Assembly: GCA_046725765.1 (NCBI GenBank)
Contig: JBKOZH010000013.1
Span: 1-47,199 of the forward strand
From: Candidatus Methylomirabilota bacterium
GTDB lineage: Bacteria > Methylomirabilota > Methylomirabilia > Rokubacteriales > CSP1-6
DNA: 47,199 nucleotides
Direction of reading: 5' to 3'
Notes under the pieces: generated by a model
Databases searched by the model: none
What the model was told of the DNA's origin: nothing
Seen by the model: the letters and a program-made list of their open reading frames with translations, nothing else
Part shown: positions 1,657-42,042 of the stretch, one piece after another
How positions within the stretch are numbered: the first letter of the stretch is position 1
Layout: each line of letters opens with the position of its first letter
Program-made: the position numbers and the translations under genes

Positions 1657-4074
1657 ATGGCCACGCCTGACCGCATCAGCTTCGGCCGCGACGGCTCGAC
1701 GGACCTCCAGACGGCGCTCGCCGGCGACATCGGCGGCGTTCCGTTCCGCACCGAGCTCTCGCTCAAGCCCGTCATCGATTTCTGGACGCGCATGGCGGGC
1801 AAGGACTCGGCAAAGGGCGCCGTCGCGCGCGTCATCACCGAAGAGGTCGCGAAGGTGCCCGAGCTGCTGGGGCCGCTGACCGACTGCGCAGTCATCGAGC
1901 GCCACGAGGACCTGCTGGATCTGCTCATGGCCGCCGCGTTCCCACCGGCGGGACGCGAGCGCGGCTACGGCGCCGCCATGGTCCCGTTCCAGCTGCACGG
2001 CTTCTATGCCACACCGCCGATGGAGCGGCTCTTGATGACCGAAGACTGGCGGCTCAAGGGCAGCGTCAACCTCGACGCCGAGATGGTCGGCGCCATGCGG
2101 CGCGCCTACGCCTACGCGCTGGTGCTCCAGCGCATGTACGGCATCGACCTCGAGCTCGACCAGCCCTTGACCCTGACCGTCCCCGACCCTGAGACGGGCC
2201 TGGACCGCCACTTCCGGCTGCTCTTCGACTGGACCTTTGTCGACGTCGAGGCCAAAGGTCCGCTGCCCGAGTTGCCTCCGGACATCTCCAGGCGCGTGCA
2301 GACCGACCTGCTCGGCGCTCAGGGGCTCGGCGACCTGCTGCCGTCGGATCGCTTCGTGCTCCGCGGCTTCACCATCCTCAAGGCCCTCGAGGTCACGGAC
2401 CAGGAGGTGCTGTCCGCGCTCAAGCGCGACCTCATCGACCGCGAGTCGATCGTCTCGAAGGAGCGCTTCTGTGGTGTCGAGGCTCGCCTTCGCACGCTGT
2501 TCCGCCGGCCCAACCTCAAGCTGGGTATCGGCGCCATCGACGGCGAGCGCGTGCTGATCCTCAACGACTTCTCGTCGCATGAGCACTCGTGCATCTTCGC
2601 GGACTCCGCGCACCACAAGGTCTCGGAGTTCGCCGGGACGGTCTACGCGCGCGCGGTGGAGAGCGGAAAGCCGATCATCATCGAGGATCTCGCCGCCATG
2701 CCGAACCGGACGCCCGTCGAGCGCTCCGTGCTCGCCTCGGGCGTCCGCACGCTGGTCGTCGCGCCGCTGCACTACCAGAACCGCGTGATCGGCACACTCG
2801 AGCTCGGCTCGCCGGAGCCCGACGACATCGACGCCGCGCACCTGCCGAAGCTGAACGAGGTGGTGCCGCTCTTCGCCATGGCCGTGCGGCGCAGCATGGA
2901 CGAGTTCAATGCGCGGGTGCAGACCGAGATCAAGGAGCGCTTCACCGCGATTCATCCGGTGGTGGAGTGGCGCTTCCGCAAGGCGGTGCTCGACGAGCTG
3001 GAGCGCAACGGAAATCCCGCCGCCGCCGAGCTGCAGCCGATCGTGTTCGAGAACGTCCACCCGCTCTACGCGCTCTCCGACATTCGCGGCTCGTCGGTGC
3101 AGCGCGAGCGCGCGATCCAGGCGGATCTCCTCAGCCAGCTGGCGCTCGCCCGCGAGGTCGTGGACGTCGCGTACAAGGCCCGCCGCCTGCCGGCGCTCGA
3201 CCAGCTGCGCTACCGCGTCGATCGGCACGCCGAGCAGATCCGCGACGGCGTCGCCGCCGGGGACGAGGTCGGGATCGTGTCATTTCTGAGGGCCGAGGTC
3301 GAATCCCTCTTCGACCACCTCGGCGCGTTCGGCGAGGCCGTGCGCGGCGCCATCGAGGCCTACCAGGGCGCGCTCGATCCGCGCCTCGGCGCGGTCTACG
3401 GTCAGCGCCGGGTGTTCGAGGAGAGCGTGACCCGCATCGCCGACATGATCTCGTCGTACCTGGATCTCGAGGAAGAAGCGGCCCAGGACATCTATCCGCA
3501 CTACTTCGAGAAGCAGAAGACCGACGGCGTGGATCACCAGATCTACGTGGGCGGTTCGCTGGTGGAGGACGGCCGCTTCGATCCGCTCTACCTCAAGAGC
3601 CTGCGGCTCTGGCAGCTGATGGTCACGTGCGGCGTCGCCGCGCGCGCCGACCGGCTGACGGCCGAGCTGCCGGTGCCGCTGCAGGTCACACATCTCGTGC
3701 TCGTGCAGCACGCGCCGATGTCAATCCGCTTCCGCTTCGATGAGAAGCGCTTCGACGTGGACGGCGCGTACGACATTCGCTACGAGATCGTGAAGAAGCG
3801 GATCGACAAGGCCGTGATCAAGGGCACGATGGAGCGCGTCACCCAGCCCGGCAAGCTCGCGATCGTGTACGGACAGGCGAGCGAGGCCGTGGAATATCGC
3901 GGCTACCTGGAGTATCTGCGCCACCTCGGCTACGTCACCGGCGAAGTGGAAGAGGTCGACCTCGAGGAGCTGCAGGGCGTCCACGGCCTGCACGCGCTGC
4001 GTGTGGCCGTCGCGACACGCGACCTGCCCGCCGAGCCGTTCGCCGCGCAGGCGTTTCGCACCGCCGCCCGCTGA
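1657..4074 (+). CDS. Large GAF-domain protein (805 aa) with uncharacterised N- and C-terminal regions
   Basis: Long ORF with coding-like composition. The central segment (...GTVYARAVESGKPIIIEDLAAMP...LVVAPLHYQNRVIGTLELGS...) looks like a GAF domain. I could not assign the flanking ~300-aa and ~350-aa regions. Confidence 0.75.
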   Translation: MATPDRISFGRDGSTDLQTALAGDIGGVPFRTELSLKPVIDFWTRMAGKDSAKGAVARVITEEVAKVPELLGPLTDCAVIERHEDLLDLLMAAAFPPAGRERGYGAAMVPFQLHGFYATPPMERLLMTEDWRLKGSVNLDAEMVGAMRRAYAYALVLQRMYGIDLELDQPLTLTVPDPETGLDRHFRLLFDWTFVDVEAKGPLPELPPDISRRVQTDLLGAQGLGDLLPSDRFVLRGFTILKALEVTDQEVLSALKRDLIDRESIVSKERFCGVEARLRTLFRRPNLKLGIGAIDGERVLILNDFSSHEHSCIFADSAHHKVSEFAGTVYARAVESGKPIIIEDLAAMPNRTPVERSVLASGVRTLVVAPLHYQNRVIGTLELGSPEPDDIDAAHLPKLNEVVPLFAMAVRRSMDEFNARVQTEIKERFTAIHPVVEWRFRKAVLDELERNGNPAAAELQPIVFENVHPLYALSDIRGSSVQRERAIQADLLSQLALAREVVDVAYKARRLPALDQLRYRVDRHAEQIRDGVAAGDEVGIVSFLRAEVESLFDHLGAFGEAVRGAIEAYQGALDPRLGAVYGQRRVFEESVTRIADMISSYLDLEEEAAQDIYPHYFEKQKTDGVDHQIYVGGSLVEDGRFDPLYLKSLRLWQLMVTCGVAARADRLTAELPVPLQVTHLVLVQHAPMSIRFRFDEKRFDVDGAYDIRYEIVKKRIDKAVIKGTMERVTQPGKLAIVYGQASEAVEYRGYLEYLRHLGYVTGEVEEVDLEELQGVHGLHALRVAVATRDLPAEPFAAQAFRTAAR

Positions 4075-4712: not shown

Positions 4713-4735
4713 CCGGCGCCGGCGCGCGACGCGCG

Positions 4736-4741
4736 TATCAT
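4736..4741 (+). promoter_or_regulatory. -10-like hexamer TATCAT, 6 nt upstream of ATG 4748
   Basis: TAnnnT at leaderless spacing, with no SD. Confidence 0.4.
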
Positions 4742-4747
4742 GTCGCC

Positions 4748-5335
4748 ATGGCCAACCCGCGTGGACGGCTGCCCAAGGCGCGCCGCGAAGACCTGAACGA
4801 TCACCTGCGGCGCATGCTGGATCGCTGGTACGAGAACGCCTACAAGGACGACAACCTCTTCCTCACGATGGCGCGCCGTCCCGGGCTGCTGGACGCGACG
4901 TGGGGATTCATCCGCTACATCTACGGCGGCGGCTCGCGCGTCGAGCCCGAGCTCTTCGAGCTCGTCCGCGTGAAGCTCGCGTGGAACAACCGCTGCGTGC
5001 ACTGAAGCCTCGCGCGATCCTCCTCGGCCGTGAGCCGAGGCGCGACGGAAGCCCTGGTGGCCAAGCTCGCCGACTACGAGCACTCCGATCTCCCGGAGCG
5101 CACGAAGGCGGCGCTGCGACTGGCCGACCGGTTGACGGGCGAGCAGCCGACGGTGGATGAGGCGTTCTACGAAGAGCTTCGCGGACAGCTGAGCGACGAC
5201 GAGATCCTCGATCTCGGCATGACCATCGCGTTCGCGAGCGGCTGGCAGCGCTTCATCGAGGCGTTCGGGATCGTGCCGGACCGCTGGCGCGACGGCACAC
5301 CGCTCCCGTTCCACGCGCTGCACGAGCGCGACTGA
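4748..5335 (+). CDS. AhpD/carboxymuconolactone-decarboxylase-family protein with an in-frame TGA at 5003-5005 (candidate selenocysteine; otherwise a nonsense pseudogene)
   Basis: ORFs 4748-5005 and 5030-5335 share one frame and are separated only by a single TGA. The read-through product is 195 aa. The TGA replaces the second Cys of the family N-x-C-x-x-C motif (AWNNRCVH[TGA]SLAR...). The second ORF has no start signals of its own. Confidence 0.6.
5010..5045 (+). promoter_or_regulatory. SECIS-like stem-loop immediately downstream of the in-frame TGA
   Basis: CCUCGGC (5022-5028) pairs with GCCGAGG (5034-5040) as 7 Watson-Crick bp around the loop CGUGA. A lower stem pairs UCGCG (5010-5014) with CGCGA (5041-5045). 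The apical loop begins 23 nt after the UGA and contains GU. Confidence 0.45.
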
Positions 5336-5351: not shown

Positions 5352-6110
5352 TTAGAAGAGACGACGTCGAGTCGCGGCGAACGCGACGAACAGACCCGGT
5401 CCGAGCAGCAGCGCGGAGCCGGGCTCGGGGACCGCGGCCGGGGGCACGAAGCGAAAATCGTCGATCGCGAAGGCGTCGCCGCGCCGGCTGTTCGGACCGA
5501 TGTCGATGTACGCGATGTCCCCGCTCGGGCGGTTGAAGCCCACGAAGACTCCGGGCCCCGGCGTCGTGTGCGCCGCCGGGAAAAGTCCACCGTGGTACGT
5601 CGGCGGCAAGACTTCGCCGTTCTCCAGCACCAGAGTCTCGAGCAGCGCGCCTCCCGCACCGAACGCCGTGATCGTATACGTGCCCGGGGTTCCGGTTGGG
5701 GCGAAGAACTGGGTGTCGGAGAAGAAGAACTCGACGGACGACACAGGGAGCGAAAAGGTGGCCCGGATACCGGCGACGGTCGGGGACGGGAATCCGCCTT
5801 CCTGACTGCCCGTGAGCACACCCGAGCCGCTGCTGGAACCGTAGCCGAACAAAGTTGGCGAGTTGTCGATCTGAGGCCGCGACGTGCCATTCGGCAGGCT
5901 TGAATAGCTGCTGCCCCCGATCTGGCTGAACGTCACGCCCGAGAGCGTCCCGATCAGCGTGCCCTCGGCAAAGCCCTCGAACGTGAGCAACGTCCCGCCG
6001 GTGGTCTGGGGCGTGAAGCTCTGCAGCGGTGCCGCGTGCGCGCCGCCGTGAAGCGCGAGGAGCATGCCCGTCACGACGGCGAACATCGAGAGATGCCTCG
6101 TCTGCCTCAT
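5352..6110 (-). CDS. PEP-CTERM sorting-domain secreted protein
   Basis: The C-terminus VPEPGSALLLGPGLFVAFAATRRR is a canonical PEP-CTERM anchor. The N-terminus has a signal peptide. I prefer ATG 6110 (GAGGAG lies 10 nt upstream) over the GTG at 6128. Confidence 0.85.
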   Translation of the reverse strand: MRQTRHLSMFAVVTGMLLALHGGAHAAPLQSFTPQTTGGTLLTFEGFAEGTLIGTLSGVTFSQIGGSSYSSLPNGTSRPQIDNSPTLFGYGSSSGSGVLTGSQEGGFPSPTVAGIRATFSLPVSSVEFFFSDTQFFAPTGTPGTYTITAFGAGGALLETLVLENGEVLPPTYHGGLFPAAHTTPGPGVFVGFNRPSGDIAYIDIGPNSRRGDAFAIDDFRFVPPAAVPEPGSALLLGPGLFVAFAATRRRLF

Positions 6111-6172
6111 TGCCCGCAAGCTCCTCACTCAGCAGAGGCGCAGATTCAACGCAAGGGAAACCGCGCGAAGAG

Positions 6173-8829: not shown

Positions 8830-10137
8830 CTACCACGGCAGGATCTCGGGGCGGAAGTCCTCGATCCGCTCCTTGACGACGAACACCGGGTCGATGCCGT
8901 AGAGCCGCCGCGCGTTGTCGCCGAGGAGCTTCTTCTGCACGGGCTGCGGCACGCCGAACTTCTCCATCGCCTCCAGCGCCTCCCACACGTCCTCGGCGTC
9001 GTGATGCGGATAGTCGGACGACCAGATCCCGACGTTCTCGTAGAGATCCCACATGCGGTAGACCGGCACCTCGTCGCTCTCGAACGCGATGAAGCAGCGG
9101 CGATAGAACGTGTCGTAGGGATCGGCGATCGTCCGTTCGCGGCCGCGCTGAAACGCATAGAGGTCGAGGAAGTTGCGGCTGCGTCCGAGCACCATCGGCA
9201 GCCACGTCGCGTTGGACTCGAGGACGGCGCACTTCAGGCGCGGAAACTTCTCGAGCCAGCCGGTCATGAGCACGGTGGTGAGCCACGTCATCGCCTCCAT
9301 GATGAAGCCCAGCGACTCGCTCGCATCGATGGTGGGCTCCATGGCGAAGACAACGTTGCTGACGAACTGGCCCGGTGAGTAGACGACCGCCTCGTCGGTG
9401 AAGAGCAGCCCGGTGCCGGCGCCGCGCGTCTGGGCGATGCGCTGCGCCCACTCGGACGTGAGCGCCTCCCGTGAGGGGAACGTGTGCATCGCGAGCACCA
9501 CGCCGAGCTCCTCGAACTCCCGCCAGAGCGGATCGAACTCCGGCAGCGTCGGATAGCGGCCGTTCCAGAAGCACGGACGCACGGCCGCCGCCTTGAAGCC
9601 CTTCTTCGCCACCCGGCGCAGCTCGGCGATCGAGTACTCGACGCTCTGGATCGGCAGCACCGCACACGGAAACAGACGCCGCCGGTCCGCGGCCGCATAG
9701 TCGTCGACCCAGTCGTTGTAGGCCGTGGCCAGCACGCGCGCGGCCTCGGCGTCGCGCACGAGCGCCAGCCGGACGAACCACGACGGAAACAGCATGACCT
9801 GGTCGGTGCCGAGCGCGTCCATGTCGCGCAACCGCGCGTGCGGGTCCCGGCAGCCCTTGAGGCGGCCGAAGCGCGCTTGCCACTCCTCGGTGCCGGGCGT
9901 CAGACGACCGACGTCTTTCTTGTCCCAGCGCGGCCAGCCGACCTCCGCCGCGTTCGCGCGCTCGCGCGACGCCGGCACCGCGCGGCCGTTGATCAGCAGC
10001 GTGTCGGTGTCGGTGTGGAAGTGAAACTGCGTCTTCACCCACGTACGCACATGTGCCGGCACGTACTCGTCCCAGATCTCGGGCGGCTCGACGATGTGGC
10101 TGTCGCAGTCGAAGACGGGGAACGACTTGGTGGCCAT
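8830..10137 (-). CDS. Amidohydrolase-2 family metal-dependent hydrolase/decarboxylase
   Basis: 435 aa. The N-terminus has VFDCDSHIVEP (HxH-type metal site) and the C-terminal region has SDYPHHD. GAGGAGG SD upstream. Confidence 0.85.
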   Translation of the reverse strand: MATKSFPVFDCDSHIVEPPEIWDEYVPAHVRTWVKTQFHFHTDTDTLLINGRAVPASRERANAAEVGWPRWDKKDVGRLTPGTEEWQARFGRLKGCRDPHARLRDMDALGTDQVMLFPSWFVRLALVRDAEAARVLATAYNDWVDDYAAADRRRLFPCAVLPIQSVEYSIAELRRVAKKGFKAAAVRPCFWNGRYPTLPEFDPLWREFEELGVVLAMHTFPSREALTSEWAQRIAQTRGAGTGLLFTDEAVVYSPGQFVSNVVFAMEPTIDASESLGFIMEAMTWLTTVLMTGWLEKFPRLKCAVLESNATWLPMVLGRSRNFLDLYAFQRGRERTIADPYDTFYRRCFIAFESDEVPVYRMWDLYENVGIWSSDYPHHDAEDVWEALEAMEKFGVPQPVQKKLLGDNARRLYGIDPVFVVKERIEDFRPEILPW

Positions 10138-10242
10138 CGGCGCCTCCTCGGCGGGTCGCGACCGGTCCGCGTGCCGCGGAGGCTATCACAAGCGCCGAGG
10201 GCGGCGGGGGCCCGCGGTACACTGGCGCGCGGAGGACAGGTC

Positions 10243-10740
10243 ATGACCACGCACGCGGGGCCGCGGGGACACGCCGTCGTCGTTCAACCCACCGAGGGAC
10301 CGTCGTACTGGCAGCCGGTGCCCGCCAACGGCCACGCCGATCCCAAGCTCACGCCCGATCTCACGCGCTTTCCGGCGCTGGCGATGGGCTATCAGACGAT
10401 CGCGCCCGGCGGCCGCGTGCGCGAGCACTCGCACGGCGATCAGATCGAGCTGCAGATCTGCTTCCGCGGCCGCGGCCACGTCGTCGTCGACGGCGCCAAG
10501 CACGCGCTCGTCCCGGGCACCGCGTGTTTTCTGGGCTACGACGTCAAGCACGAGATCGTGAACGACGGCGCCGAGGAGCTCGTGATGCTGTGGATGATCA
10601 CGCCGCACGGGCTGGAAGACTTCTTCAAGGCCATCGGCCGGCCTCGGACGGCGGGCGAGCCGGCGCCCGCGCCGTTTGCGCGTCCGGAGGACGTCGTCGC
10701 GGTCGAGCGCGCGATGGGGATGAACGACACGCGTGCGTAG
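10243..10740 (+). CDS. Cupin-domain protein
   Basis: 165 aa. ATG preceded by GGAGGA. Cupin motifs are present (EHSHGDQIELQICFRGRG...GTACFLGYDVKHEIVN). Confidence 0.8.
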   Translation: MTTHAGPRGHAVVVQPTEGPSYWQPVPANGHADPKLTPDLTRFPALAMGYQTIAPGGRVREHSHGDQIELQICFRGRGHVVVDGAKHALVPGTACFLGYDVKHEIVNDGAEELVMLWMITPHGLEDFFKAIGRPRTAGEPAPAPFARPEDVVAVERAMGMNDTRA

Positions 10741-12515: not shown

Positions 12516-13865
12516 TCAGCGCAGCGCCGCGAAGACGCTCCGGGCCAGGCGCGGCAGCTCCGGATCGCGCGCGCCCATCAGCAACACCGTGTCGCCGGGG
12601 CGCGCCTCGCTGGCGACCCAGCGCACGACCGCCGGGTGGTCGGCCGCGTATGCACTGCTGACGTCCGCGGCCAGATCCCGGCTCGACAGATCGCGCGTGA
12701 CGGTCCCGCCCGCGTAGTAGATCTCCGCGTAGCAAAGACGATCGGCAGGGCGCAGCAGGCGAGGAAGCATCTCGCGGAGCTCGCCGCGCAGGAAGCGCGC
12801 GGGCCCGAACCCATGCGGCTGGAACACCGCGACGACGCGCGCCGCACCCGCCTGCGCGGTGGTCAGCGCCGCGCGAATCTTCTCCGCGTTGTGCGCGAAA
12901 TCGTCGATGACCCGGATGCCGGACGCCGTGATGCCGATCGTCTCGAAGCGCCGTGCCACGCCGGGAAAGCGCGGGAGCAGCGCCTCGACGTTCGCGCGCG
13001 CGACGCCCAGCTCGAGCGCGATGAGTGCGGCGGCCGCCGCGTTCTCGAGATTGTGCAGGCCCGGCTGCGGCACGTCGAGGGCGACGTCGAGGCCGCGCCA
13101 GCGCAGGAGGCCGGCCGCGCGCGCCGGCCCGAGCACCCGCGCCGTCACGGGGGCGGCGGCTCCACTCGCGACGCCGTAGGTCGTCGCCCCGACGTCGCGG
13201 CCGAGCGCCGCGGCCTCGGCACAGCGCGCGTTGACCAAGAGCCGCCCGCACTGCGCGGCGAAGGTCGCGAACTGCTTGCGCAGCGGCTCGAGCTCCGTGT
13301 GATCGCGGCTGATGTTGTGGATCAGTCCCAACGCTGGCTGATAGCCCACCAGCGTGCCGTCGGACTCGTCGGCCTCGGCCACCACGGCGCCGTCGACCGT
13401 CCCGGTCACCAGGCAGCCGCCGCCGCCCTCACCGACCAGCGCGGCGCCGCCGATGACGGCGGCCGGCGCAGCGGACTCGCGCGCCAGCCACGCGAGCATC
13501 CCCGTGATCGTGCTCTTGCCGCTGGTGCCGCTCACGGCGACACCGGGGCGGGCGGTGTTGACCATCTCCGCCAGCAGCGCGGGCCGCGCGATCGTCGTAA
13601 GCCCGAGCGCGCGCGCCGCGCTCATCTCAGGCGTGTCGGCTTCCACCGCCGTCGAGAAGACGAAGCGATCGATGCCCACGGTGATCGCGCGACCGTCGTG
13701 CGGGACGAGCTCGACGCCGGCCGCGCGCAGCGCATCGGCGGCCTCGCGGTTTCGGCCCACATCGAACGCGCGATCCGAGCCCTGCACGCTGTGCCCGCGG
13801 GCCCGCATCAACCGCGCCAGCGGGCTCATGCCCGCACCGCCCACGCCCGAGAAGTGATAGCGCAT
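12516..13865 (-). CDS. Mur-ligase-family protein (MurC/Mpl-like), stand-alone
   Basis: The start is set at MRYHFSGVGGAGMS... (ATG 13865), supported by a TACGAT box 6 nt upstream. P-loop GTSGKST. Mur ligase middle and C-terminal domains are present. Confidence 0.8.
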   Translation of the reverse strand: MRYHFSGVGGAGMSPLARLMRARGHSVQGSDRAFDVGRNREAADALRAAGVELVPHDGRAITVGIDRFVFSTAVEADTPEMSAARALGLTTIARPALLAEMVNTARPGVAVSGTSGKSTITGMLAWLARESAAPAAVIGGAALVGEGGGGCLVTGTVDGAVVAEADESDGTLVGYQPALGLIHNISRDHTELEPLRKQFATFAAQCGRLLVNARCAEAAALGRDVGATTYGVASGAAAPVTARVLGPARAAGLLRWRGLDVALDVPQPGLHNLENAAAAALIALELGVARANVEALLPRFPGVARRFETIGITASGIRVIDDFAHNAEKIRAALTTAQAGAARVVAVFQPHGFGPARFLRGELREMLPRLLRPADRLCYAEIYYAGGTVTRDLSSRDLAADVSSAYAADHPAVVRWVASEARPGDTVLLMGARDPELPRLARSVFAALR

Positions 13866-13871
13866 TGGCCC

Positions 13872-13877
13872 ATCGTA
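13872..13877 (-). promoter_or_regulatory. -10-like hexamer TACGAT (minus strand), 6 nt upstream of ATG 13865
   Basis: Leaderless spacing, with no SD. Confidence 0.4.
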
Positions 13878-13892
13878 CCGAGGAGGCCGCGC

Positions 13893-13898
13893 TACAAT
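13893..13898 (+). promoter_or_regulatory. -10 hexamer TACAAT, 9 nt upstream of ATG 13908
   Basis: Near-consensus -10 in a 42-bp divergent spacer. Confidence 0.4.
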
Positions 13899-13907
13899 CC
13901 AGAGGCG

Positions 13908-15617
13908 ATGACGGACGGTGCGCACGGCCTGGCCCGGGGACTGACGAACTACGGCGACGCCGACTTCTCGCTCTATCTGCGCCGCTCGTTCGCGACGTCC
14001 ATGGGGTACTCACGCGAGATGCTCGCACGCCCCGTCGTCGGTATCGCGCAGTCGGCGAGCGGCTTCAACAACTGCCATCGGCACTTTCCCGAGCTGATCG
14101 ACGCCGTCAAGCGCGGCGTCGTCGCCGCCGGCGGACTACCGCTGGACTTTCCCACGATCTCCCTCGGCGAAGTCTTCCTGTCGCCGACGAGCATGATGTT
14201 CCGCAATCTGATGTCGATCGACGTCGAGGAAATGATTCGCGCTCAGCCGATGGACTCCGTGGTGCTCGTCGGCGGCTGCGACAAGACGGTACCCGCCCAG
14301 CTCATGGGCGCGGCGTCGGCGGACGTCCCAGCCGTGCAGCTGCTCGCGGGGCCGATGATGCCCATGCCGTATCACGGCGAGCGCCTCGGCGCTTGCACCG
14401 ACTGCCGGCGGTTCTGGGCGAAGTACCGCGCCGGCGGGCTGAGCGCGACCGAGATTCAGGAGGTCGAAGGCAACCTGGCGACGACGGCCGGCACGTGCGC
14501 CGTGATGGGCACCGCATCGACGATGGCGTCGATCGCCGAGACGCTCGGCATGGCGCTGCCCGGCACGGCGGCCATCCCGGCGGTGCACGCCGATCGCCTG
14601 CGCGCGGCTGAGGCGAGCGGCCGCCAGGCCGTCGCGCTCGCGGCCGCGAAGCTGACGCCGTCGAAGATCATCACCGCGAAGTCCGTCGAGAACGCGCTGC
14701 GCGTGCTGCTCGCCATCGGCGGCTCGACGAACGCGATCATCCATCTCACCGCGATCGCGGGCCGCGTCGGCGTGCCGATCTCGCTCGAGCGTCTCAACGA
14801 GCTCAGCGACTCGACGCCCGTGCTGGTGGATCTCAAGCCCACGGGTCAGCACTACATGTCCGATCTGCACGCCGCCGGCGGCGTCGGCGCCGTGCTGCGC
14901 GAGCTCAAGCCGCTGCTGCACCTCGATTGCCTGACGGTCACCGGGGAGACGCTCGGCCAGCGTCTCGCTGGCGAGCCGGCGTGGGTCGACCGCGCCGTCG
15001 TGCGCGCGCTCGACGATCCCTATCAGAAGCAGGGCGGGCTCGTCGCGCTGTTCGGCTCGCTCGCGCCGAGCGGCGCCATCCTCAAGCGCTCCGCAGCGGA
15101 TCCCGCGCTGTTCGAGCGTGAGGCGCGCGCCGTCGTGTTCTCGTCGCTGGACGATCTCGCCGCGCGCGTCGACCGGGCGGACCTCGACGTCAGCGCCGAC
15201 GACTTCCTCGTGCTGCAGAACGCCGGGCCGAAGAGCGGCTACGCGATGCCGGAAGCCGGCTACCTACCGATTCCGGCCAAGCTTGCGAAGACCGGCGTGA
15301 AGGACATGGTCCGCATCTCCGACGCGCGGATGAGCGGGACCGCGTACGGCACGATCGTGCTGCACGTGTCACCCGAGGCCGCCGTCGGGGGGCCACTGGC
15401 GCTCGCGAAAACCGGCGACCGGATCCGCCTCAGCGTCGCGCGGCGCAGCATCGATCTGCTCGTCGACGAGGCAGAGCTGGGCCGTCGCCGTGCCGCGTGG
15501 CGGCCGCCCACGACGCCGCCGACGCGCGGCTACGCGAAGCTCTACATGCAGTCCGTGCTCCAGGCCGAGCACGGCTGCGATTTCGATTTTCTGAGACGAG
15601 AGGAGCCCCGAGCGTGA
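13908..15617 (+). CDS. IlvD/Edd-family dehydratase (sugar-acid/dihydroxy-acid dehydratase)
   Basis: 569 aa with the family motifs ...VLVGGCDKTVPA... and ...TAGTCAVMGTASTM... Confidence 0.9.
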   Translation: MTDGAHGLARGLTNYGDADFSLYLRRSFATSMGYSREMLARPVVGIAQSASGFNNCHRHFPELIDAVKRGVVAAGGLPLDFPTISLGEVFLSPTSMMFRNLMSIDVEEMIRAQPMDSVVLVGGCDKTVPAQLMGAASADVPAVQLLAGPMMPMPYHGERLGACTDCRRFWAKYRAGGLSATEIQEVEGNLATTAGTCAVMGTASTMASIAETLGMALPGTAAIPAVHADRLRAAEASGRQAVALAAAKLTPSKIITAKSVENALRVLLAIGGSTNAIIHLTAIAGRVGVPISLERLNELSDSTPVLVDLKPTGQHYMSDLHAAGGVGAVLRELKPLLHLDCLTVTGETLGQRLAGEPAWVDRAVVRALDDPYQKQGGLVALFGSLAPSGAILKRSAADPALFEREARAVVFSSLDDLAARVDRADLDVSADDFLVLQNAGPKSGYAMPEAGYLPIPAKLAKTGVKDMVRISDARMSGTAYGTIVLHVSPEAAVGGPLALAKTGDRIRLSVARRSIDLLVDEAELGRRRAAWRPPTTPPTRGYAKLYMQSVLQAEHGCDFDFLRREEPRA

Positions 15618-17891: not shown

Positions 17892-17977
17892 AAGACGAGC
17901 GACCGAACCGCGGCGCGTAGCCGATGTTAGGCGCTCGGCAGGAGACTCACGCCGATGCCGCTGGAAGGGGACTGGCA

Positions 17978-18469
17978 ATGCCCGCGAAGGGCGATCTGAA
18001 AGCGCTGATCCACGAGATCTTCACCGAGGAAGCCGCGCACATGGGTCTCGACGAGGCCGTCGCCGACTTTCCGGTGAAGCACATCAACGACAAGGCGCCG
18101 AACGTGCCGTTCAGCTTCTGGCACATCCTCGAGCACATCCGCATCGCACAGACCGACCTGCTCGAGTACGTGGAGAACGCCAAGCATCTCTCCCCCTCAT
18201 GGCCTGACGGTTACTGGCCCGCGCCGAACGCCACAACGGACGCCGCCGGATGGAAGAAAACGATCACGGCGATCAAGAAGGATCTCGACCGGATGGACAC
18301 GATGCTCGCCGATCCGCGCATCGACGTCTTCGCGCCGGTGCCGTTCGCGAACAACAAGTCGGTCGTCCGCTGTGCGTTCGTCGCGATCGACCACAACGCC
18401 TACCACCTCGGAGAGTTCGCGATTCTGCGACAGGTGATGCAGCTCTGGCCGAAGAACCGAAAGGGCTGA
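17978..18469 (+). CDS. DinB-family protein
   Basis: 163 aa from ATG 17978. It has a helical-bundle His pattern (FWHILEHIRIAQ...IDHNAYHLGEF). Confidence 0.8.
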   Translation: MPAKGDLKALIHEIFTEEAAHMGLDEAVADFPVKHINDKAPNVPFSFWHILEHIRIAQTDLLEYVENAKHLSPSWPDGYWPAPNATTDAAGWKKTITAIKKDLDRMDTMLADPRIDVFAPVPFANNKSVVRCAFVAIDHNAYHLGEFAILRQVMQLWPKNRKG

Positions 18470-21136: not shown

Positions 21137-22425
21137 TTAGAGCGCCGCCGTCCGAAAGCCGGCGAAGATGTTCCGTCGCTGAGCCTTGAAGAAGTTGCGC
21201 CACGTGGCGCGAATCAATCGCGAGCGCGTCGTCCAGCCGCCTTTGAGCACCTTCTTCTGACCAAAATGCGGCTCCGAATACTCCTTGTACGGGTCGCACA
21301 CGAAGCCCGGATACGGTTTGAACGTGTCCGCCACCCACTCCCACACGTTGCCGATCATCTGCCGACAGCCGACTGGACTGTCACCGGCCGCCAGCGCGCG
21401 CACGTCGAGCGTTCCACCGGCGTGGTAGTCGAGATTGGCACACTCGGGCGTGGGGAACGCATCGCCCCACGGGAACCGACGTTTGCATCGCGTGACGGGA
21501 TCGAGCGTGGCCGCCATCTCCCACTCGGCCTCCGTCGGCAGCCTGCGGCCCGCCCAGCGACAGAACGCCTCGGCCTCGTACCAGTTGACGTGGACGACGG
21601 GATGCCACGGCTCGAGCGGCACGAGCATCTCGAACCGTCGCTCGAACCACCGCCCCTCGTGGCATTGCCAGAAGAGCGGATGCTCGGCGCGCTGGCGGCG
21701 GCGCCAGTCCCAGCCGCGCCGGCCCCAGCACTCGCGGCGGCGATAGCCGCTGTCGTCGCCGCGATGCGGAACGGCGCGACCTCGACCGGATGCGCCCATT
21801 TTTCGTTGTCGAAGACGAACGGCTCGTCGGGATCGGCGCCGAGCATGAACGTCCCTCCCGGCACCGACACGTCATGAAGGCGAAAATCGGCGGCAACGTC
21901 CGACGCTGTGCATCGCCGACGCAGCCCCGCTGGCCGCGCATACCCGAGCGTTTGGAGGATAGCCGTGAGATTTTCGGCGTGCATGCCCTCGTGCTGAGCA
22001 GTCAGCGTATAGAAGTACGCGTCGGCCGCGGTCGGCTCGCGCGACCCGAGCCGCGTCACGCTCCGTTCCAAAACGTCCGTGATGTACTTCAGCGTCTCCG
22101 TGCGCGTCGGAAAGCGCAGCTCCCAGCGCTGTCTATAGGGGACGCAGAACGAGTCGTAGAGCTCGTCGGACCCGCGCAGCAGCGTGTCGACGCCGTCGAG
22201 CCGGCGTAGGAGCCAGTACTCCTGGAACCACCCGACGTGACCCATCTCCCAGATCGGTGGCTCGAGGAAGTGCCCGGCGGTGCCGAGCATCTCGGGATCG
22301 CTGAGACCCTCGAGCAGCGCGAGCTCGACGTGGCGGGCATCGAGCAGCGGCTCGAGTAAATCCTTTGATGTGCTGAGCGCCGCGGTGCGCATAGCCGTAT
22401 GCAACGCACTGTAGCGGCGTGGCAT
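21137..22425 (-). pseudogene. EgtB/OvoA-like sulfoxide-synthase paralog (DinB_2 + FGE-sulfatase domains), disrupted by a frameshifting internal deletion
   Basis: The N-terminal frame carries IWEMGHVGWFQEYW and QHEGMHAE (HxxxHxE). The C-terminal frame carries GYRRRECW...[25 protein letters not shown]...NVWEWV...RNFF. The frames switch near 21750-21765. About 13 codons that are present in the intact egtB copy ([13 protein letters not shown]) are missing here. Confidence 0.65.
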
Positions 22426-22490: not shown

Positions 22491-24446
22491 TCAGTCGCGA
22501 AGCGCGGCCACGATCGCGTCGACGTCATAGACGCAGCCGCCCCACGTCCCGCCGCCGGCCTGCTGCAGCGCGGCCCACAGCCGCGTGTCGTCCGCGATCT
22601 CCGGATCGGGCGACAGATCCGGTTGCGGCGCGCGTGCGGCGAGCACTCGCGCGCCCTCCTCGGGAGAGAACGTTCGGCCGCTCTCGCCGACGAGGTCGAT
22701 CGACCCCTCGAGCCGATGCCGATCGATCACGATGCGGATGCTGTCGCCGTCGCGCACCCGGCCGATCGGTCCACCCGCGAGGGCTTCGGGCCCGACGTGC
22801 CCAATGCAGGCGCCAGTCGAGACACCGGAGAAGCGCGCGTCGGTGATCACGGCCACGTGCTTGCCGAACGAGAGGTGCTTCAGCGCGGCCGTGATCTGGT
22901 AGATCTCCTCCATCCCCGCGCCGAGCGGGCCGCGACCGATCAACACCAGCACGTCGCCGGGCTTGATGCCGCCTGAACCAGGATTCTTGATCGCCGCGAT
23001 CGCGTCCTTCTCGCGGACGAACACGCGCGCCGGCCCGGTCTTTCGGTAGACGCCGTCGGCATCGACGACCGACGGATCGATCGCCGTCGATTTGATCACC
23101 GAACCCTCGGGCGCGAGGTTGCCGCGCGGGAACGTCACCGTGCTCGTCAACCCGCGGGCGCGCGCGCGATCGGGGTCCATGATGACGTCCTCGGGTGCGA
23201 CGCCGTCAGCGCGCCGCAGCTGCTCGCGCAGCACGCGACGGCGCTCGCTGCCCTCCCACCAGTCGAGCACGCGGCCGAGCGTTTCGCCGCTGGCGGTGAG
23301 CGCTCCTTCTTCGAGCAGGCCGAGGCGGCGCAGGTGCAGCATCACCTCCGGCACGCCGCCGGCGAGGAACGCGCGCACGGTCGGGTGCGGACCGTTCGGC
23401 AGCGTGTCGACCAGCCGCGGCACGCGGCGGTTGACCGCGATCCAGTCCTCGACGCTCGGCCGGCGCAGGCCTGCCGCGTGCGCGATGGCGGGCGTGTGCA
23501 GCAGCAGATTCGTCGAGCCGCCGAATGCGGCGTGCACGACCATGGCGTTGCGGATCGCCGCGTCGGTGACGATCGCCGACGCGGTGATACCGCGCGCGGC
23601 GAGACTCACGAGCGCGCGCGCGGAGCGCCGCGCCATGTCCGTCCAGATCGGCTGGCCCGACGGCGCCAGCGCCGAGTGCGGCAGCGACAAGCCGAGCGCC
23701 TCGCCGACCACCTGCGACGTCGCGGCGGTGCCGAGGAACTGACAACCGCCGCCCGGCGAGCCGCACGCGCGGCAGCCGAGGTCCTGCGCCTGCTCCAGCG
23801 TCAGCTCGCCATGGGCGAAGCGCGCACCGATGGACTGGACCTTGCCCGCGTCCTCGCCGTCGATCGGCGGCAGCGTCACGCCGCCCGGCACCAGCACGAC
23901 GGGCAGCGCGCGCATCGAGGCGAGCGTCATCATCATCGCGGGGAGGCCCTTGTCGCACGTCGCGATGCCGAGCACGCCCTTGCGCGTGGGCAGCGAGCGC
24001 ACGAGACGGCGCAGCACCATCGCCGCGTCGTTGCGATAGGCCAGGCTGTCCATCATCCCGACGGTTCCCTGCGTACGTCCATCGCACGGGTCCGAGCAGA
24101 ACGCGGCGAACGGCAGGCACTCCTGCGCGGCGAGCTCCTCGGCGGCTGCTTGCATGAGCAGGCCGATCTCCCAGTGTCCGGTGTGATAGCCGAGGGCGAT
24201 CGGACGGCCGTCCGCGGCGCGGATGCCGCCATTGGTACCAAGCATCAGGAACTGGGGCCGGCCGAGCTCGCGCGGATCCCACCCCATGCCCGCGTTCTGC
24301 GTGAGGCCGAAGACGTCGCCGCTCGGTCGCTCGAGCAGCATCTCCGCGGTGAGCGGCAGCCGCCCCGCCGGCCCGGAGCCGGCCGTGCGGACTTCGAATG
24401 TCGTGCGATCGGATTCGACGAGCGTCTGGAAGCCTGTTGCTTTCAT
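22491..24446 (-). CDS. YjhG/YagF-type D-xylonate (pentonate) dehydratase, IlvD/Edd family
   Basis: 651 aa and collinear with E. coli YjhG/YagF as I remember it ([15 protein letters not shown]...NAGMGW; [11 protein letters not shown]; GGCQFLGTA; [15 protein letters not shown]; [27 protein letters not shown]; GGTW.GC.YDV). Confidence 0.9.
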
Positions 24447-24508
24447 GGCCGCGAGGGTACCACCGCGGCGCCGGTCGCTGGCGCGACCGTTGCAAATCCG
24501 CCCTGCGG

Positions 24509-25747
24509 ATGCGCGAGGATTCCAGCCTGCTCGAACACTACCTGGACGTTAGGCGAGCTACCGAGCGGCTCTGCGAGCCGCTCGCGGTGGAAGACTACTG
24601 CGTGCAGGCCATGCCCGACGCGAGTCCGGCCAAGTGGCACCTCGCGCATGTGTCCTGGTTCTTCGAGACGTTCGTGCTGCGCGCGCGCGCAGCCGACTAC
24701 CGCCCACTCGACCCGCGTTACGCGGTGCTGTTCAACTCGTACTACAACGGCGTCGGGCCGCAGTTCGAGCGTCCCGCGCGCGGCACGCTCTCGCGGCCGA
24801 CCGTCGCGGACGTGTTCGCGTATCGCGCGCACGTCGACAAGGCCATGATGGCGGTGCTGGAGGACGGGAACGGTGTCGTCACCGTCGGGCCGGTGATCGA
24901 GCTCGGGCTGCATCACGAGCAGCAGCACCAGGAGCTGCTCGTGACCGATCTCAAGTACAACCTCGGCGCCAATCCGCTGCGCCCGGCGTATCGCACGCTC
25001 GCGCGGCCCCGCCGCGCGGCGGCGCCGCACACGTTCGTGGACTTCGAGGGCGGGGTCGTCGAGATCGGCCACGGAAGTGCCGACTTCGCGTTCGACAACG
25101 AGCGGCCGCGGCACCGCGTGGCGCTGGCACCCTACACGCTCGGCTCGCGGCTGATCACGAACGCGGAGTATCTGGAATTCGTCGAGGCCGGCGGTTATCG
25201 GCGGCCGGATCTCTGGCTGTCGGACGGCTGGCGCACCGTGCGCGAGCGCGACTGGCGCGCGCCGCTCTACTGGGAGCGCGTGGACGGCGCATGGCACGCA
25301 TACACGCTCGGCGGCGTCGCGCCGCTCGAGGCCCAGGCACCGGTCGCGCACGTCAGCTACTACGAAGCCGACGCGTACGCGCGTTGGCGGCACGCACGGC
25401 TGCCGACGGAGGCGGAGTGGGAGCATGCCGCCGCCGGCCAGCCCGTCGATGGCAACCTGCTCGACGACGCTGCCGACGACCCGCAGCCGCCAACGCACAC
25501 CGGTCTCGCGCAGCTCTTCGGCGACGTGTGGGAGTGGACGGCCAGCGCGTACCTGCCGTACCCTGGCTTCCGCCCGCTGGCCGGCTCGCTCGGCGAGTAC
25601 AACGGGAAATTCATGGTCAACCAGATGGTTCTTCGCGGCGGCTCGTGCGCAACGCCGCGCTCGCACATTCGCGCGAGCTACCGCAACTTCTTCCCGCCCG
25701 ACGCGCGCTGGCAGTTCTCGGGCATTCGCCTCGCGCGAGACCTGTGA
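24509..25747 (+). CDS. egtB: Ergothioneine biosynthesis sulfoxide synthase EgtB (hercynine oxygenase)
   Basis: 412 aa from ATG 24509. DinB_2 domain: [17 protein letters not shown] and [11 protein letters not shown]-sulfatase domain: [38 protein letters not shown]. Confidence 0.85.
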
Positions 25748-26742
25748 CGCGCTATCACGCCGACGTCCACGTCGACGACGACGCGCTCACCGCGGCGCTC
25801 GCCGCCGATGTCCGTCGCGGGCTCAGTGCACGGGAGAAGTGGCTGCCGCCGAAATACTTCTACGACGCAGCTGGGTCGGCGCTGTTCGAGCGCATCACGC
25901 ATCTGCCGGAATACTACCTCACGCGCGCCGAGCAGCGGCTGCTCGCAGCCCACGCCGCGGCGATCGTCGACGACGTTCGGCCCGAGGAGATCGTCGAGCT
26001 GGGCGCGGGCTCGCCGGCGAAACTGCGCATGCTGCTGGCCGCCCTGAACGGCAGTGGGCCGCTCGCGCGCTACGTCCCCGTCGACGTCGACGCGTCGATG
26101 CTCTCCGCGGCCGGCGACACGCTGCTCTCCCGAGGCGAGGTCAGCGAGGTCCACGCGGTCGTCGCCGACTTCGAGCGTCACCTGCGACGAATCCCGCCGC
26201 CGGCGGGGCGGCGGCTCGTGGCCTTCCTCGGCTCGACGATCGGCAACCTGCATCCGGCCGCCCGTCACACGCTGCTACGCGACGTCCGACGCTTGCTCGG
26301 CAGCAGCGATCGTCTGCTGCTCGGCGTCGATCTCGTCAAGTCGCCCTGCGCGCTTCACGCCGCCTACGACGACGCCGCCGGCGTCACCGCCGAGTTCAAC
26401 CGCAATATCCTCCGCGTGATCAATCGGCGGCTCGGCGCCGACTTCGACGTCGAGGCGTTCGGCCACTACGCGCGCTGGGATGCCGAGGCCGCTCGTGTGG
26501 AGATGCATCTCGTAGCGTCCACGGATCACACGGTGCGCGTGCGCGAGCTGAACATGACGGTGAGCTTTGAAGCTGGCGAGACGATCTGGACGGAGAGCGC
26601 GTACAAATTCACCCGCGCGTCGGTGGAGGCGATGCTCCGCGCCGCCGGGATGCGGCTCCACCGCTGGGACAGCGACGGCGCGTTCGCGCTGGCGCTCGCC
26701 GCTCCCATCCGCGCGGCGGCGGCGCTGCCGCGCGCCGCATGA
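25744..26742 (+). CDS. egtD: L-histidine N-alpha-methyltransferase EgtD
   Basis: 332 aa. The GTG overlaps the egtB stop (GTGA). Motifs: LPPKYFYDAAGSALFERIT.LPEYY.TR.E, ELGAGS..K, FLGSTIGN, TAEFN.N.L, E.S.KF. Confidence 0.9.
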   Translation: MTRYHADVHVDDDALTAALAADVRRGLSAREKWLPPKYFYDAAGSALFERITHLPEYYLTRAEQRLLAAHAAAIVDDVRPEEIVELGAGSPAKLRMLLAALNGSGPLARYVPVDVDASMLSAAGDTLLSRGEVSEVHAVVADFERHLRRIPPPAGRRLVAFLGSTIGNLHPAARHTLLRDVRRLLGSSDRLLLGVDLVKSPCALHAAYDDAAGVTAEFNRNILRVINRRLGADFDVEAFGHYARWDAEAARVEMHLVASTDHTVRVRELNMTVSFEAGETIWTESAYKFTRASVEAMLRAAGMRLHRWDSDGAFALALAAPIRAAAALPRAA

Positions 26743-31910: not shown

Positions 31911-33947
31911 ATGACGCCTACGACCGTCGAGCGCCCCAGCGTCTGTCCCCTCGATTGTCCCGACACGTGCAGCCTCAGCGTCACCGTCGACGCGGGCCGC
32001 ATCACGAAGATCCGCGGCTCGCGCGCCAACCCCTACACGGCCGGCGTGCTCTGCGCGAAGGTGCCCGAGTCGTATCCGGAGTTCGTCCACGGCCCCGGCC
32101 GCCTCACGACGCCGCTGCGTCGAGTCGGCAAGAAGGGCGAAGGGCGCTTCGAGCGCATCACGTGGGAGCAGGCGCTCGACGAGATCCACGCGCGCGTGTC
32201 GTCCGTCATCGCGGAGCACGGACCGCAGGCCGTGATGCCGCTGAACTATGGCGGGCCGCACGGCCTCCTCGCCGGCGGCTCGATGGACCTGCGCTTCTTT
32301 CATCGGCTGGGCGCCACGCTCCTCGACCGCGGGCCACTCTGCGGCGGCATTCGCAGCGAGGCGTGGGCGGGCACGTACGGCGCCGCACCCGGAATTCCGC
32401 CGGAGCAGGTCGAGGCGAGCCGGCTGATCATCGCGTGGGGCTACAACGTCACATGGTCGGGGCTGCATCTCACACCGATCATCGATCGCGCGCGCCGCAA
32501 CGGCGCGAAGCTCGTCGTCGTTGATCCCAAGCGGACGAAGATCGCCGAGCGCGCCGATCTGCATCTGCCGATCAAGCCCGGCACCGACGTCGTGCTCGCG
32601 TGGGCGATCGCCGCCGAGCTCGAACGACGCGGCGCCATCGACCGTGCCTTCGTCGAGCGGCACGTGTCCGGCTACGAGGAGTACATGGAGCGCGCGCGGC
32701 GCTGGACGCCGGCGGCCGCCGCACGCGAGTGCGGGCTCTCCCAGGCGGACGTCGAGCTGCTCGCGGAGTGGTATGCGAGTGTGTCGCCCGCCGCGATCGC
32801 TGTGGGCAATGGACTGGAGCGCAATCAGAACGGCGGCAGTGGCGTACGCGCGGTGTTCGCGCTGCCCGCCCTCGCCGGCAAGTTCGGCGTGCGGGGCGGC
32901 GGGCTCGTGAACTCGGCGCGCGCGGCATTTCCGCGCACGCCCGCCAAGCTGGCGCGGCCGGATCTCGTGCCGAAGGGCACGCGAACGCTGAACATCGTGG
33001 ACGTCGGTCGGCATCTGACCGATCCGGCGCTCTCGCCGCCGCTGAAGGCGATCTTCGTCTACAACCACAACCCGCTCGTGGTGCATCCCGATCAGAATCG
33101 GATGCGCCGCGGGCTCGCGCGCGAGGACCTGTTCGTCGTCGGCTCGGACGTGGTGATGACGGACAGCCTGGACTATGCCGACATCGTGCTGCCGGCGTGC
33201 AGCCACTTCGAGCACGACGATCTGTTCGCGGCGTACGGCACGCACTGGCTGCAGCGTGCGGAGCCCGTCATTCCGCCGCAGGGCGAGGCGCTACCCAACA
33301 CCGAGATCTTCCGGCGGCTGGCGGCGCGCTTTGGGTTCGATGATCCGGTCTTCCGCGCGAGCGACGCCGAGCTCATGGACGACGCGGTCGACGGCGCGGA
33401 CGCGCGGCTGGGCGGTGTGCAGCCGAGCCGCATCCCGCTCGATCGTGCGCTGCTGATGACATTCGACGGCGGCGAGGCGAACCTTTTCGCCAACGTCTTC
33501 CCGAAGACGGCGTCGGGCAAGGTGGAGCTCGCATCGCCCTATCTCGAAACCAAATACGGCGCGCGACTGCCCGACTATCGCCCGTTCACGTCCTCGTACC
33601 CGCTGATTCTCATCACGCCGGCGTCGGATAAGCGCACGACCTCGACGTTCGGCGGCTGCACCGCCAACGCCGAGACGCCGCCGCTCGAGATCCATCCCGA
33701 CGACGCGCGGGCGCGCGGGCTCTCCGACGGCATGCGCGTACGCGTGTGGAACGACCTCGGCGAGGTTCACCTGCCCGTGCGCGTCACGGACTCGGTGCCG
33801 CCCGGCGTCGTGTGCTCGCTCAAGGGCGCCTGGATGAAGACGAGCGACAACGGACAGACGGTGTCCGCGCTCGCACCCACGCACCACGCCGACATCTGCG
33901 GCGGCGCCTGCTACAACGACACGCGCGTCGAGGTGGCTCCCGCCTGA
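31911..33947 (+). CDS. Molybdopterin-dependent oxidoreductase (MopB superfamily) with N-terminal 4Fe-4S motif
   Basis: 678 aa. It has a CPLDCPDTC (CxxCxxxC) cluster motif, the MopB core and a C-terminal molybdopterin dinucleotide-binding domain (IHPDDA...G...V.V). Confidence 0.85.
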   Translation: MTPTTVERPSVCPLDCPDTCSLSVTVDAGRITKIRGSRANPYTAGVLCAKVPESYPEFVHGPGRLTTPLRRVGKKGEGRFERITWEQALDEIHARVSSVIAEHGPQAVMPLNYGGPHGLLAGGSMDLRFFHRLGATLLDRGPLCGGIRSEAWAGTYGAAPGIPPEQVEASRLIIAWGYNVTWSGLHLTPIIDRARRNGAKLVVVDPKRTKIAERADLHLPIKPGTDVVLAWAIAAELERRGAIDRAFVERHVSGYEEYMERARRWTPAAAARECGLSQADVELLAEWYASVSPAAIAVGNGLERNQNGGSGVRAVFALPALAGKFGVRGGGLVNSARAAFPRTPAKLARPDLVPKGTRTLNIVDVGRHLTDPALSPPLKAIFVYNHNPLVVHPDQNRMRRGLAREDLFVVGSDVVMTDSLDYADIVLPACSHFEHDDLFAAYGTHWLQRAEPVIPPQGEALPNTEIFRRLAARFGFDDPVFRASDAELMDDAVDGADARLGGVQPSRIPLDRALLMTFDGGEANLFANVFPKTASGKVELASPYLETKYGARLPDYRPFTSSYPLILITPASDKRTTSTFGGCTANAETPPLEIHPDDARARGLSDGMRVRVWNDLGEVHLPVRVTDSVPPGVVCSLKGAWMKTSDNGQTVSALAPTHHADICGGACYNDTRVEVAPA

Positions 33948-41959: not shown

Positions 41960-41988
41960 ACTATGCTGTGCGTGGCGATGGGTGTCAA
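41960..41988 (-). promoter_or_regulatory. Sigma-70-type promoter of the AAA+/VWA operon
   Basis: The minus strand reads TTGACA, a 17-nt spacer, then CATAGT. The -10 ends 12-15 nt upstream of the start codons, so the leader is very short. Confidence 0.45.
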
Positions 41989-42042
41989 GGCGCGCACAGG
42001 CCGGTCGCGCGCGGGACTACAATGAGTCCGGAGGTCACCGCC

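Follow-up and report, generated by a model that had tools for sequence, protein, structure and literature searches.

AhpD-like selenoproteins carrying a CxxU motif, in which U stands for selenocysteine (Sec), have been known since 2005. The Sargasso Sea study described both an AhpD-like family (COG2128, CxxU) and a carboxymuconolactone decarboxylase (CMD)-domain family (PF02627, CxxU) (PMC1088965), and the Global Ocean Sampling study lists 51 prokaryotic selenoprotein families, among which AhpD-like 1, with 299 selenoproteins, ranks fourth in size (PMC2398784). Several AhpD-related Sec families appear in current lists (PMC13188914) and an AhpD-like family page is available in BSepDB (PMC13326102). 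We report here on a gene located at positions 4748-5335 (+) of a 47,199-nucleotide contig from a Candidatus Methylomirabilota bacterium (GenBank accession JBKOZH010000013.1; the whole stretch is termed the window below), the reading frame of which is interrupted by a TGA codon at the place of the second Cys of the redox motif of this superfamily. An earlier note, made from the sequence alone, had proposed that this TGA encodes Sec and had stated that AhpD-like proteins are listed among bacterial selenoproteins, which is borne out by the CxxU families of both surveys (PMC1088965, PMC2398784). Our analysis leads us to predict, with a probability of roughly 0.9, that the gene is intact and encodes a selenoprotein, with a Sec insertion sequence (SECIS) element that is functional; as such, it is a member of the same superfamily as the known AhpD-like CxxU selenoproteins and works like them.

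Positions 4748 to 5335 (+) form a single frame in which the TGA at 5003-5005 is the sole in-frame interruption, and read-through of this codon yields a 195-aa product ending at a terminal TGA (5333-5335). The earlier note had described two co-framed open reading frames (ORFs), 4748-5005 and 5030-5335, with this TGA alone between them and 195 aa on read-through, and every one of its coordinates proved correct when the sequence was re-examined. The peptide around the internal TGA (asterisk) reads LAWNNRCVH*SLARSSSAVSRGATEALV, the residues that follow being given in a second listing as LAWNNRCVH*SLARSSSAVSRGATE. The ATG at 4748 (MANPRG) agrees with the start of the orthologs (MAN[DE]RG). TGA is the usual stop codon of the genes called in the window (21 of 31), as had been remarked before, and the codon is thus not reassigned genome-wide. 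The features of the locus are the following:

4735 to 4740 (+): TATCAT, a possible -10 box of the leaderless type, 7 nt upstream of the start codon (putative).
4748 to 5335 (+): complete coding sequence, AhpD-like (CMD superfamily), 195 aa; single frame, family matches, Cys homologs 46-70% identical.
4994 to 5005 (+): redox motif C83-V84-H85-U86 (TGC GTG CAC TGA), aligned with the CxxC of 2prr and PA0269.
5003 to 5005 (+): in-frame UGA, predicted selenocysteine codon; TGA in 67 of 67 informative orthologous loci, TGC in 6 of 6 Cys-form loci.
5006 to 5020 (+): linker codons +1 to +5 (S-L-A-R-S), from the UGA to the upper stem; amino acid kept in 28 of 28.
5022 to 5040 (+): SECIS-like hairpin core, 7-bp upper stem and loop CGUGA; bacterial SECIS criteria, pairing and third-position constraint.
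5008 to 5048 (+): lower stem, pairing 5008-5014 with 5041-5048 around the core; less conserved, 88.7% of cells paired.

A family profile composed of the window protein and 24 full-length homologs matched 13 AhpD/CMD sequences of the Protein Data Bank (PDB), the top match being 2prr (E = 1e-15, profile positions 14-178) and further matches including PA0269, Deinococcus radiodurans AhpD and the Bmp8 debrominase. The nearest solved relatives by sequence profile and fold are the AhpD-core 'peroxidase-related' proteins 2prr, 2pfx and 3c1l, D. radiodurans AhpD (6k40) and Pseudomonas aeruginosa PA0269/AhpD (2o4d, 7xw1), with profile E-values of 1e-15 to 1e-8. Their CxxC aligns with C83/U86, and in the profile alignment the TGA column coincides with the second Cys of the CxxC of solved members (NQCLYC, INGCAYC). 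Unlike the predicted window protein, these relatives are all Cys proteins, with the motif C-x-Y-C-x-x-x-H and mostly no assigned substrate, and identity is about 20-27%. All 24 full-length Cys homologs have C86, and C83 and H85 are nearly invariant among them; full-length database matches (46-70% identical) carry Cys in the TGA column, and its codon is TGC in all six Cys-form loci. The proposal that the TGA occupies the second-Cys position of the family redox motif is thus upheld both by the invariant Cys of the homologs and by the CxxC of the solved structures. The family spacing, given in the earlier note as C..C...H...A...G, was recovered only in part: A at +8 and G at +12 agree with the spacing of PA0269 (CAYCVNMHANDARKAG), but the canonical His at +4 (C-x-x-C-x-x-x-H) is absent, being replaced by Arg in Sec forms and by Thr, Lys or Gln in Cys forms, and the window protein carries instead a His at -1. 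The fold was modelled with AlphaFold on P0001, a Cys homolog 70% identical to the window protein. The resulting model (pLDDT 87, pTM 0.84) is all-helical, positions the CxxC at the N-terminus of helix 84-88 and has 2prr, 2pfx, 3c1l and 6k40 as its top PDB fold matches (template modelling (TM) scores of 0.73-0.80); an AhpD-core/CMD fold of the window protein is supported through this modelled homolog.

When compared to AhpD-like 1 (COG2128/TIGR01926), the window gene shares the AhpD-core fold, a CxxU motif with Sec in second place, the frequent occurrence of Cys-containing homologs and a SECIS hairpin, its small apical loop containing a G, directly past the UGA. It differs by its C-V-H-U motif, with His at -1 and without His at +4, by its failure to reach the TIGR01926 cutoff and by its provenance, AhpD-like 1 being of marine plankton whereas the clade of the window gene comes from soil and groundwater Rokubacteria/Methylomirabilota. 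The best NCBIfam matches of the window protein were to NF053654 ('YciW-related (seleno)protein', 46.9 bits, residues 37-175) and TIGR01926 ('peroxidase-related enzyme', 46.3 bits). The cutoff of NF053654 is 310 bits, far above the window protein and its orthologs (17-48 bits), and that of TIGR01926 is 81.8 bits, five orthologs scoring 29-47. NF053654, NF041238 and NF041047 resemble the window gene in being families of the AhpD superfamily that include Sec forms. No curated NCBIfam cutoff was reached by the window protein or by eight read-through orthologs taken from both of the subfamilies described below. Scores this far below the curated cutoffs indicate that the window protein constitutes a different family within the AhpD superfamily. 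Homologs are named 'alkylhydroperoxidase family enzyme' by JGI.

Downstream of the UGA, CCUCGGC (5022-5028) pairs with GCCGAGG (5034-5040) around the loop CGUGA (5029-5033), which begins 23 nt past the UGA, and a lower stem is formed between 5010-5014 and 5041-5045; hairpin, loop, spacing and lower stem were all found as previously described. In the bacterial SECIS (bSECIS) model of bSECISearch, the apical loop has 3-9 nt and carries a G within its first two positions, most often with G or U after it; the upper stem has 4-16 bp, the loop lies 16-37 nt from the UGA and the minimum free energy is -7.5 kcal/mol or lower (PMC13188914, Fig. 2 legend). The window hairpin, with a 5-nt loop, a 7-bp stem, a 23-nt spacing and -12.2 kcal/mol, passes all four criteria and has a G at loop position 2 followed by U, in keeping with the suggestion that this geometry and GU-containing loop fit a bacterial SECIS element. 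When orthologs are included, 58 of 66 sequences pass.

Orthologs were sought in one genome per GTDB species, which gave 70 loci (L001-L070), and two subfamilies with distinct stem sequences can be recognized. Subfamily A, comprising the window and L001-L029, has the stem CCUCGGC/GCCGRGG with the loop CGUGA or GUG, and subfamily B has the stem GCGCAUC/GAUGCGC with the loop GUU; despite these different sequences, both present a 7-bp stem and a G-U loop about 20-24 nt past the UGA. With respect to the bSECISearch consensus, the family differs in using two stem sequences, one per subfamily, and SelB binding is predicted. The upper stem of subfamily A is paired in 100% of cells over 29 sequences, the variants being U:G, U:A and one A:U double change. 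That of subfamily B is 93% paired and displays 15 compensatory cells (G:C to U:A, C:G to U:A), a level of covariation equalled by none of 500 shuffles, and slid registers are only 12-53% paired; four subfamily-B sequences that seemed unpaired form 7-bp hairpins of their own in a shifted register. The lower stem has one pair with double changes and several pairs that are broken in some sequences. At codons +6 to +12, which lie within the hairpin, third-position entropy is down to about 0.18 bits, the rest of the gene averaging 1.09 bits (standard deviation 0.32), and these near-frozen synonymous sites indicate a constraint at the RNA level on top of that on the protein. The in-register hairpin is broken in all six Cys-form genes: of the seven pairs, they retain 1-4 when read in register A and 0-6 when read in register B. 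One of these genes, L078:351-953 (P0043, TGC), keeps six of the seven subfamily-B pairs around a loop CCU devoid of G and looks like a decaying SECIS relic following a Sec-to-Cys change.

The hairpin might also stimulate a recoding of the UGA other than by Sec, such as near-cognate read-through with Trp or Cys, and some database translations indeed show another residue: P0030, P0032 and P0034 (source 'src') give Gly at the TGA (CVHGSLARSSSAVSRGATE). This Gly suggests that the three were translated under a code with TGA as a sense codon, and their other mismatches are of the kind expected from error-prone sequence. There is no positive support for read-through with another amino acid. The position is that of an invariant redox Cys in the homologs, making a classic Cys/Sec pair, the spacing and G-U loop of the hairpin are those of a SelB-type SECIS, and TGA is the main ordinary stop in the window. 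Furthermore, the selenoprotein family is an established one and the phylum is reported to be rich in Sec (PMC2398784, PMC13188914): a review credits one Methylomirabilota metagenome-assembled genome (MAG) with 63 predicted selenoprotein genes (PMC13188914), and Methylomirabilota are among the phyla with Sec-containing hydrogenases (PMC13582414). Recoding by an amino acid other than Sec is in our judgment very unlikely.

A codon-by-codon comparison of 28 close orthologs was made across the TGA. Codons +2 to +5 (L, A, R, S) specify the same amino acid in 28 out of 28, with third positions that are free to vary (entropy 0.6-1.85 bits). An amino acid sequence kept unchanged by codons with variable third positions denotes purifying selection on the protein, in frame, past the TGA, which argues against a pseudogene and against a stop-restart arrangement alike. 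In the latter, translation would stop at the TGA and restart at the GTG at 5030, producing 85-aa and 101-aa polypeptides that make up one AhpD-like domain, and the hairpin would serve for pausing or coupling. An in-frame GTG or ATG is indeed found nine codons past the TGA in most orthologs and is the one used by gene callers, but it lies in the hairpin, which accounts for its conservation. From the TGA to the GTG, eight codons vary synonymously but keep their amino acids and are therefore translated in frame, no Shine-Dalgarno (SD) sequence precedes 5030, and a split would delete the catalytic second Cys, which is invariant in every Cys homolog; we find a split gene hardly credible.

The absence of an SD sequence ahead of 5030 had been pointed out in the earlier note together with the TATCAT box before the first ORF, which is present at 4735-4740. 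A TATNAT box located 7-8 nt 5' of the start recurs in about ten loci (L001-L004, L009, L010, L024, L042 and L061), some of which have a different upstream gene, and the remaining orthologs display a GGAGG-type SD sequence in place of the box. Judging from these motifs, its mRNA may lack a leader in part of the genomes, whereas in others the gene may be SD-led.

Three of the 70 loci are cut by contig ends and are hence uninformative. In 65 loci, a TGA stands at the aligned codon and S-[LSV]-[AVT]-[RK]-S comes next, and two more, L042 and L061, have kept the TGA and carry a frameshift further downstream. In the public MAGs surveyed, TGA is therefore found in 67 out of 67 informative orthologous loci, and TAA, TAG or a sense codon in none, with encoded proteins that have diverged down to 43-60% identity. 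Most of these loci are of Rokubacteria/Methylomirabilota. All of the nearest TGA-bearing loci are from MAGs labelled Candidatus Rokubacteria, Rokuibacteriota or Methylomirabilota, which by itself would make it very probable that the window is of that lineage. The distant ones are labelled Acidimicrobiia, Dehalococcoidia, Entotheonellaceae, Eisenbacteria, Verrucomicrobiia and Deferrimicrobiaceae, and some of these distant labels may reflect mis-binning.

The closest database proteins, 70-87% identical to the window protein, are half-proteins: the N-terminal ones stop exactly at ...KLAWNNRCVH and the C-terminal ones begin with M/VSRGATE, the pattern to be expected of gene callers that stop at a conserved in-frame stop codon. 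Such split calls are routine in public records including NCBI MAGs (proteins P0035-P0120, loci L001-L070). Some N-terminal fragments (e.g. P0046 and P0063) carry long, probably spurious extensions before the MAN[DE]RG start. Identity among the C-terminal halves is 65-85%, and 42 columns are invariant in 16 of them. The homology across the stop which the earlier note had asserted is thus confirmed, the aligned column holding Cys in the homologs and TGA in the informative loci, and close relatives display no pattern of disabling mutations except for the two frameshifted copies, which belong to a single MAG.

These data bear directly on the possibility that the gene is a pseudogene, created by a recent TGC/TGT-to-TGA nonsense mutation in a Cys-type AhpD-like gene. 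The step is a small one, TGC, the codon of the Cys forms, being one base change away from TGA, and the two orthologous copies with frameshifts would suit a process of decay. A recent mutation would not be shared by every informative locus at such protein divergence, however, nor would it leave the downstream half under purifying selection, with its 42 invariant columns, and only synonymous change in the linker codons. By this ortholog conservation, a pseudogene appears effectively refuted and extremely unlikely. A sequencing or assembly error at 5003-5005 masking a real TGC or TGT has a negligible chance, since independent assemblies, made by many projects and on many sequencing platforms, agree on the TGA, which goes together with a hairpin that TGC forms fail to keep intact.

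Several observations weigh against the selenoprotein prediction. On the single sequence, the Pfam CMD score of 22.8 bits (E = 9e-5) is marginally below the gathering score of 23, and the missing His at +4 is a canonical active-site residue of the superfamily. The bSECIS model is a loose one, 14.6% of random TGA sites in the 70%-GC window passing it, and an energy of -12 kcal/mol or lower is reached at 2.2% of such sites. The 60-nt fold has a z-score of -0.35 with respect to shuffles, a stability that is ordinary for 70%-GC DNA, so that the hairpin, which the earlier note had called strong, is unexceptional by energy alone; as this energy is uninformative, the weight rests on the comparative data and not on stability. 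Rfam contains no family for the hairpin, either in the window at gathering thresholds or in 4960-5100 under permissive settings. The MAG holding the two frameshifted copies, MFD10007.bin.2.20, has them at L042 (about 9719-10292) and L061 (about 1616-2189); each combines the TGA with a +1 frameshift, at a different downstream place, which could be an assembly error or a real decay of duplicated copies. Finally, no tRNA-Sec was detected by ARAGORN in the window and 60 loci, and tblastn searches of the window and of every locus, with Escherichia coli SelA, SelB and SelD as queries, gave no selA, selB or selD. The space searched for the Sec machinery amounts to the 47-kb window and about 1 Mb of orthologous flanks and, as sel genes need not adjoin selenoprotein genes, this negative outcome is not evidence against the claim. 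On balance, the selenoprotein prediction is supported by the Cys column, the conserved TGA and the conserved, covarying hairpin, and none of the refutation tests that were run went against it.

We infer Sec insertion itself, the roles of the catalytic residues and the substrate by analogy with described systems. By the standard bacterial pathway, the hairpin at 5022-5040 would act as a bacterial SECIS element and recruit SelB and Sec-tRNA(Sec) to the ribosome, and the UGA at 5003-5005 would then be decoded as Sec instead of causing termination. The product would be a 195-aa, all-helical AhpD-core/CMD thiol-selenol oxidoreductase with the centre C83-V-H-U86. In Mycobacterium tuberculosis AhpD, the second Cys reacts as the nucleophile with oxidised AhpC, and the intermediate is resolved by the first. 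In the window protein, by analogy with enzymes of the AhpD family, Sec86, which stands in the place of the second Cys, would be the nucleophile and would attack an oxidised substrate, whether a peroxide, a sulfenic acid or a disulfide of a partner protein; Cys83 would resolve the intermediate as a selenenylsulfide, which an external thiol reductant would re-reduce. The M. tuberculosis enzyme (1knc, 1gu9) shares the CxxC redox centre and the superfamily fold with the window protein but is a distant structural match only (Foldseek E of about 2, TM of about 0.4), and its His/Glu proton relay is not conserved. The tetrabromopyrrole debrominase Bmp8 (6ohi, 6ohj) also has the CMD fold (profile E = 2e-8, model TM 0.70). 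It is a dehalogenase according to its entry names, and its C82A mutant was crystallised, so that Cys82 is probably important for activity. A debrominase with this fold shows that the fold can support chemistry beyond peroxide reduction, although Bmp8 is only about 18% identical to the window protein, for which nothing points to halogenated substrates.

The neighbours of the gene, encoding a GAF-domain protein, a haloacid dehalogenase (HAD) hydrolase and a CoA-transferase, are shared solely with the nearest Rokubacteria loci. No functional partner emerged from synteny across the orthologous loci; there is no ahpC in the window, and no ahpC, lipoamide or Lpd partner nearby. The GAF-domain protein is encoded at 1657-4074 (+) and has 805 aa, with a central GAF domain as its sole Pfam match; the closest Rokubacteria loci (L001-L005, L009) have it in synteny, at 79-88% identity. 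On the other side of the gene, 5352-6128 (-) encodes a 258-aa protein without Pfam match, the C-terminus of which (VPEPGSALLLGPGLFVAFAATRRRLF) is similar to PEP-CTERM sorting signals; by tblastn at an E threshold of 1e-10, none of the other loci had it beside the gene.

We put forward, as a tentative proposal somewhat short of an even chance, that the gene is part of a separate AhpD-like selenoprotein clade for which there is no curated model. Such a clade would be characterized by C-V-H-U without His at +4, by a wide occurrence in MAG taxa (Methylomirabilota/Rokubacteria, Acidimicrobiia, Dehalococcoidia and others), by two SECIS stems and sometimes, perhaps, by leaderless expression; its genes would be systematically split in public MAGs and its substrate might be unlike that of classical AhpD.

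The remainder of the window is of uniform base composition, and its called genes, judged by Pfam, belong to ordinary metabolism and regulation, with nothing related to selenium. A scan of the window for other in-frame TGA candidates, based on third-codon-position G+C (GC3), returned only antisense frames or adjacent same-frame genes. MsrA and molybdopterin oxidoreductase families include selenoproteins elsewhere; here, the MsrA at 41968-42693 (+) is of the Cys type (GCFWG), and a same-frame TGA at 31773 lies upstream of the real start (MTPTTVERPSVCPLDC) of the molybdopterin oxidoreductase gene at 32046-33944 (+), that gene having no internal stop. A ROK-family kinase gene lies antisense to a further minus-strand candidate, at 34176, which was likewise rejected.

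Some other genes of the window may be mentioned. At 24398-26739 (+), a gene for a DinB_2 and FGE-sulfatase protein (EgtB-like) adjoins one for a Methyltransf_33 histidine methyltransferase (EgtD-like), and the two are an ergothioneine-type biosynthesis pair; a separate gene at 21140-21799 (-) has FGE-sulfatase only and another at 17924-18466 (+) has DinB_2 only. Two paralogs of the dihydroxy-acid/6-phosphogluconate dehydratase family (ILVD/EDD) are located at 12636-15614 (+) and 22494-24446 (-). The first of these ORFs has 993 aa with domains in residues 465-981 only; its start is probably over-called, or else about 1.4 kb (12.6-14.0 kb) holds something unannotated. Lastly, a 314-aa ORF at 36499-37443 (+), which failed the GC3 gene-calling filter, resembles, by eye only, an ABC-transporter substrate-binding protein.

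The finding opens no new mechanism and settles no long-standing question. In practical terms, the gene should be annotated as one 195-aa selenoprotein instead of two fragments, and the same correction applies to dozens of public records from Rokubacteria, Acidimicrobiia and other MAGs; as no curated NCBIfam model captures the window protein or its eight read-through orthologs, automated pipelines keep splitting the gene. For the family, the two SECIS variants and the six Cys forms make a useful set for the study of SECIS evolution and of Sec/Cys exchange, and for the organisms concerned, the gene adds a well-supported case for the use of selenocysteine in Methylomirabilota/Rokubacteria.

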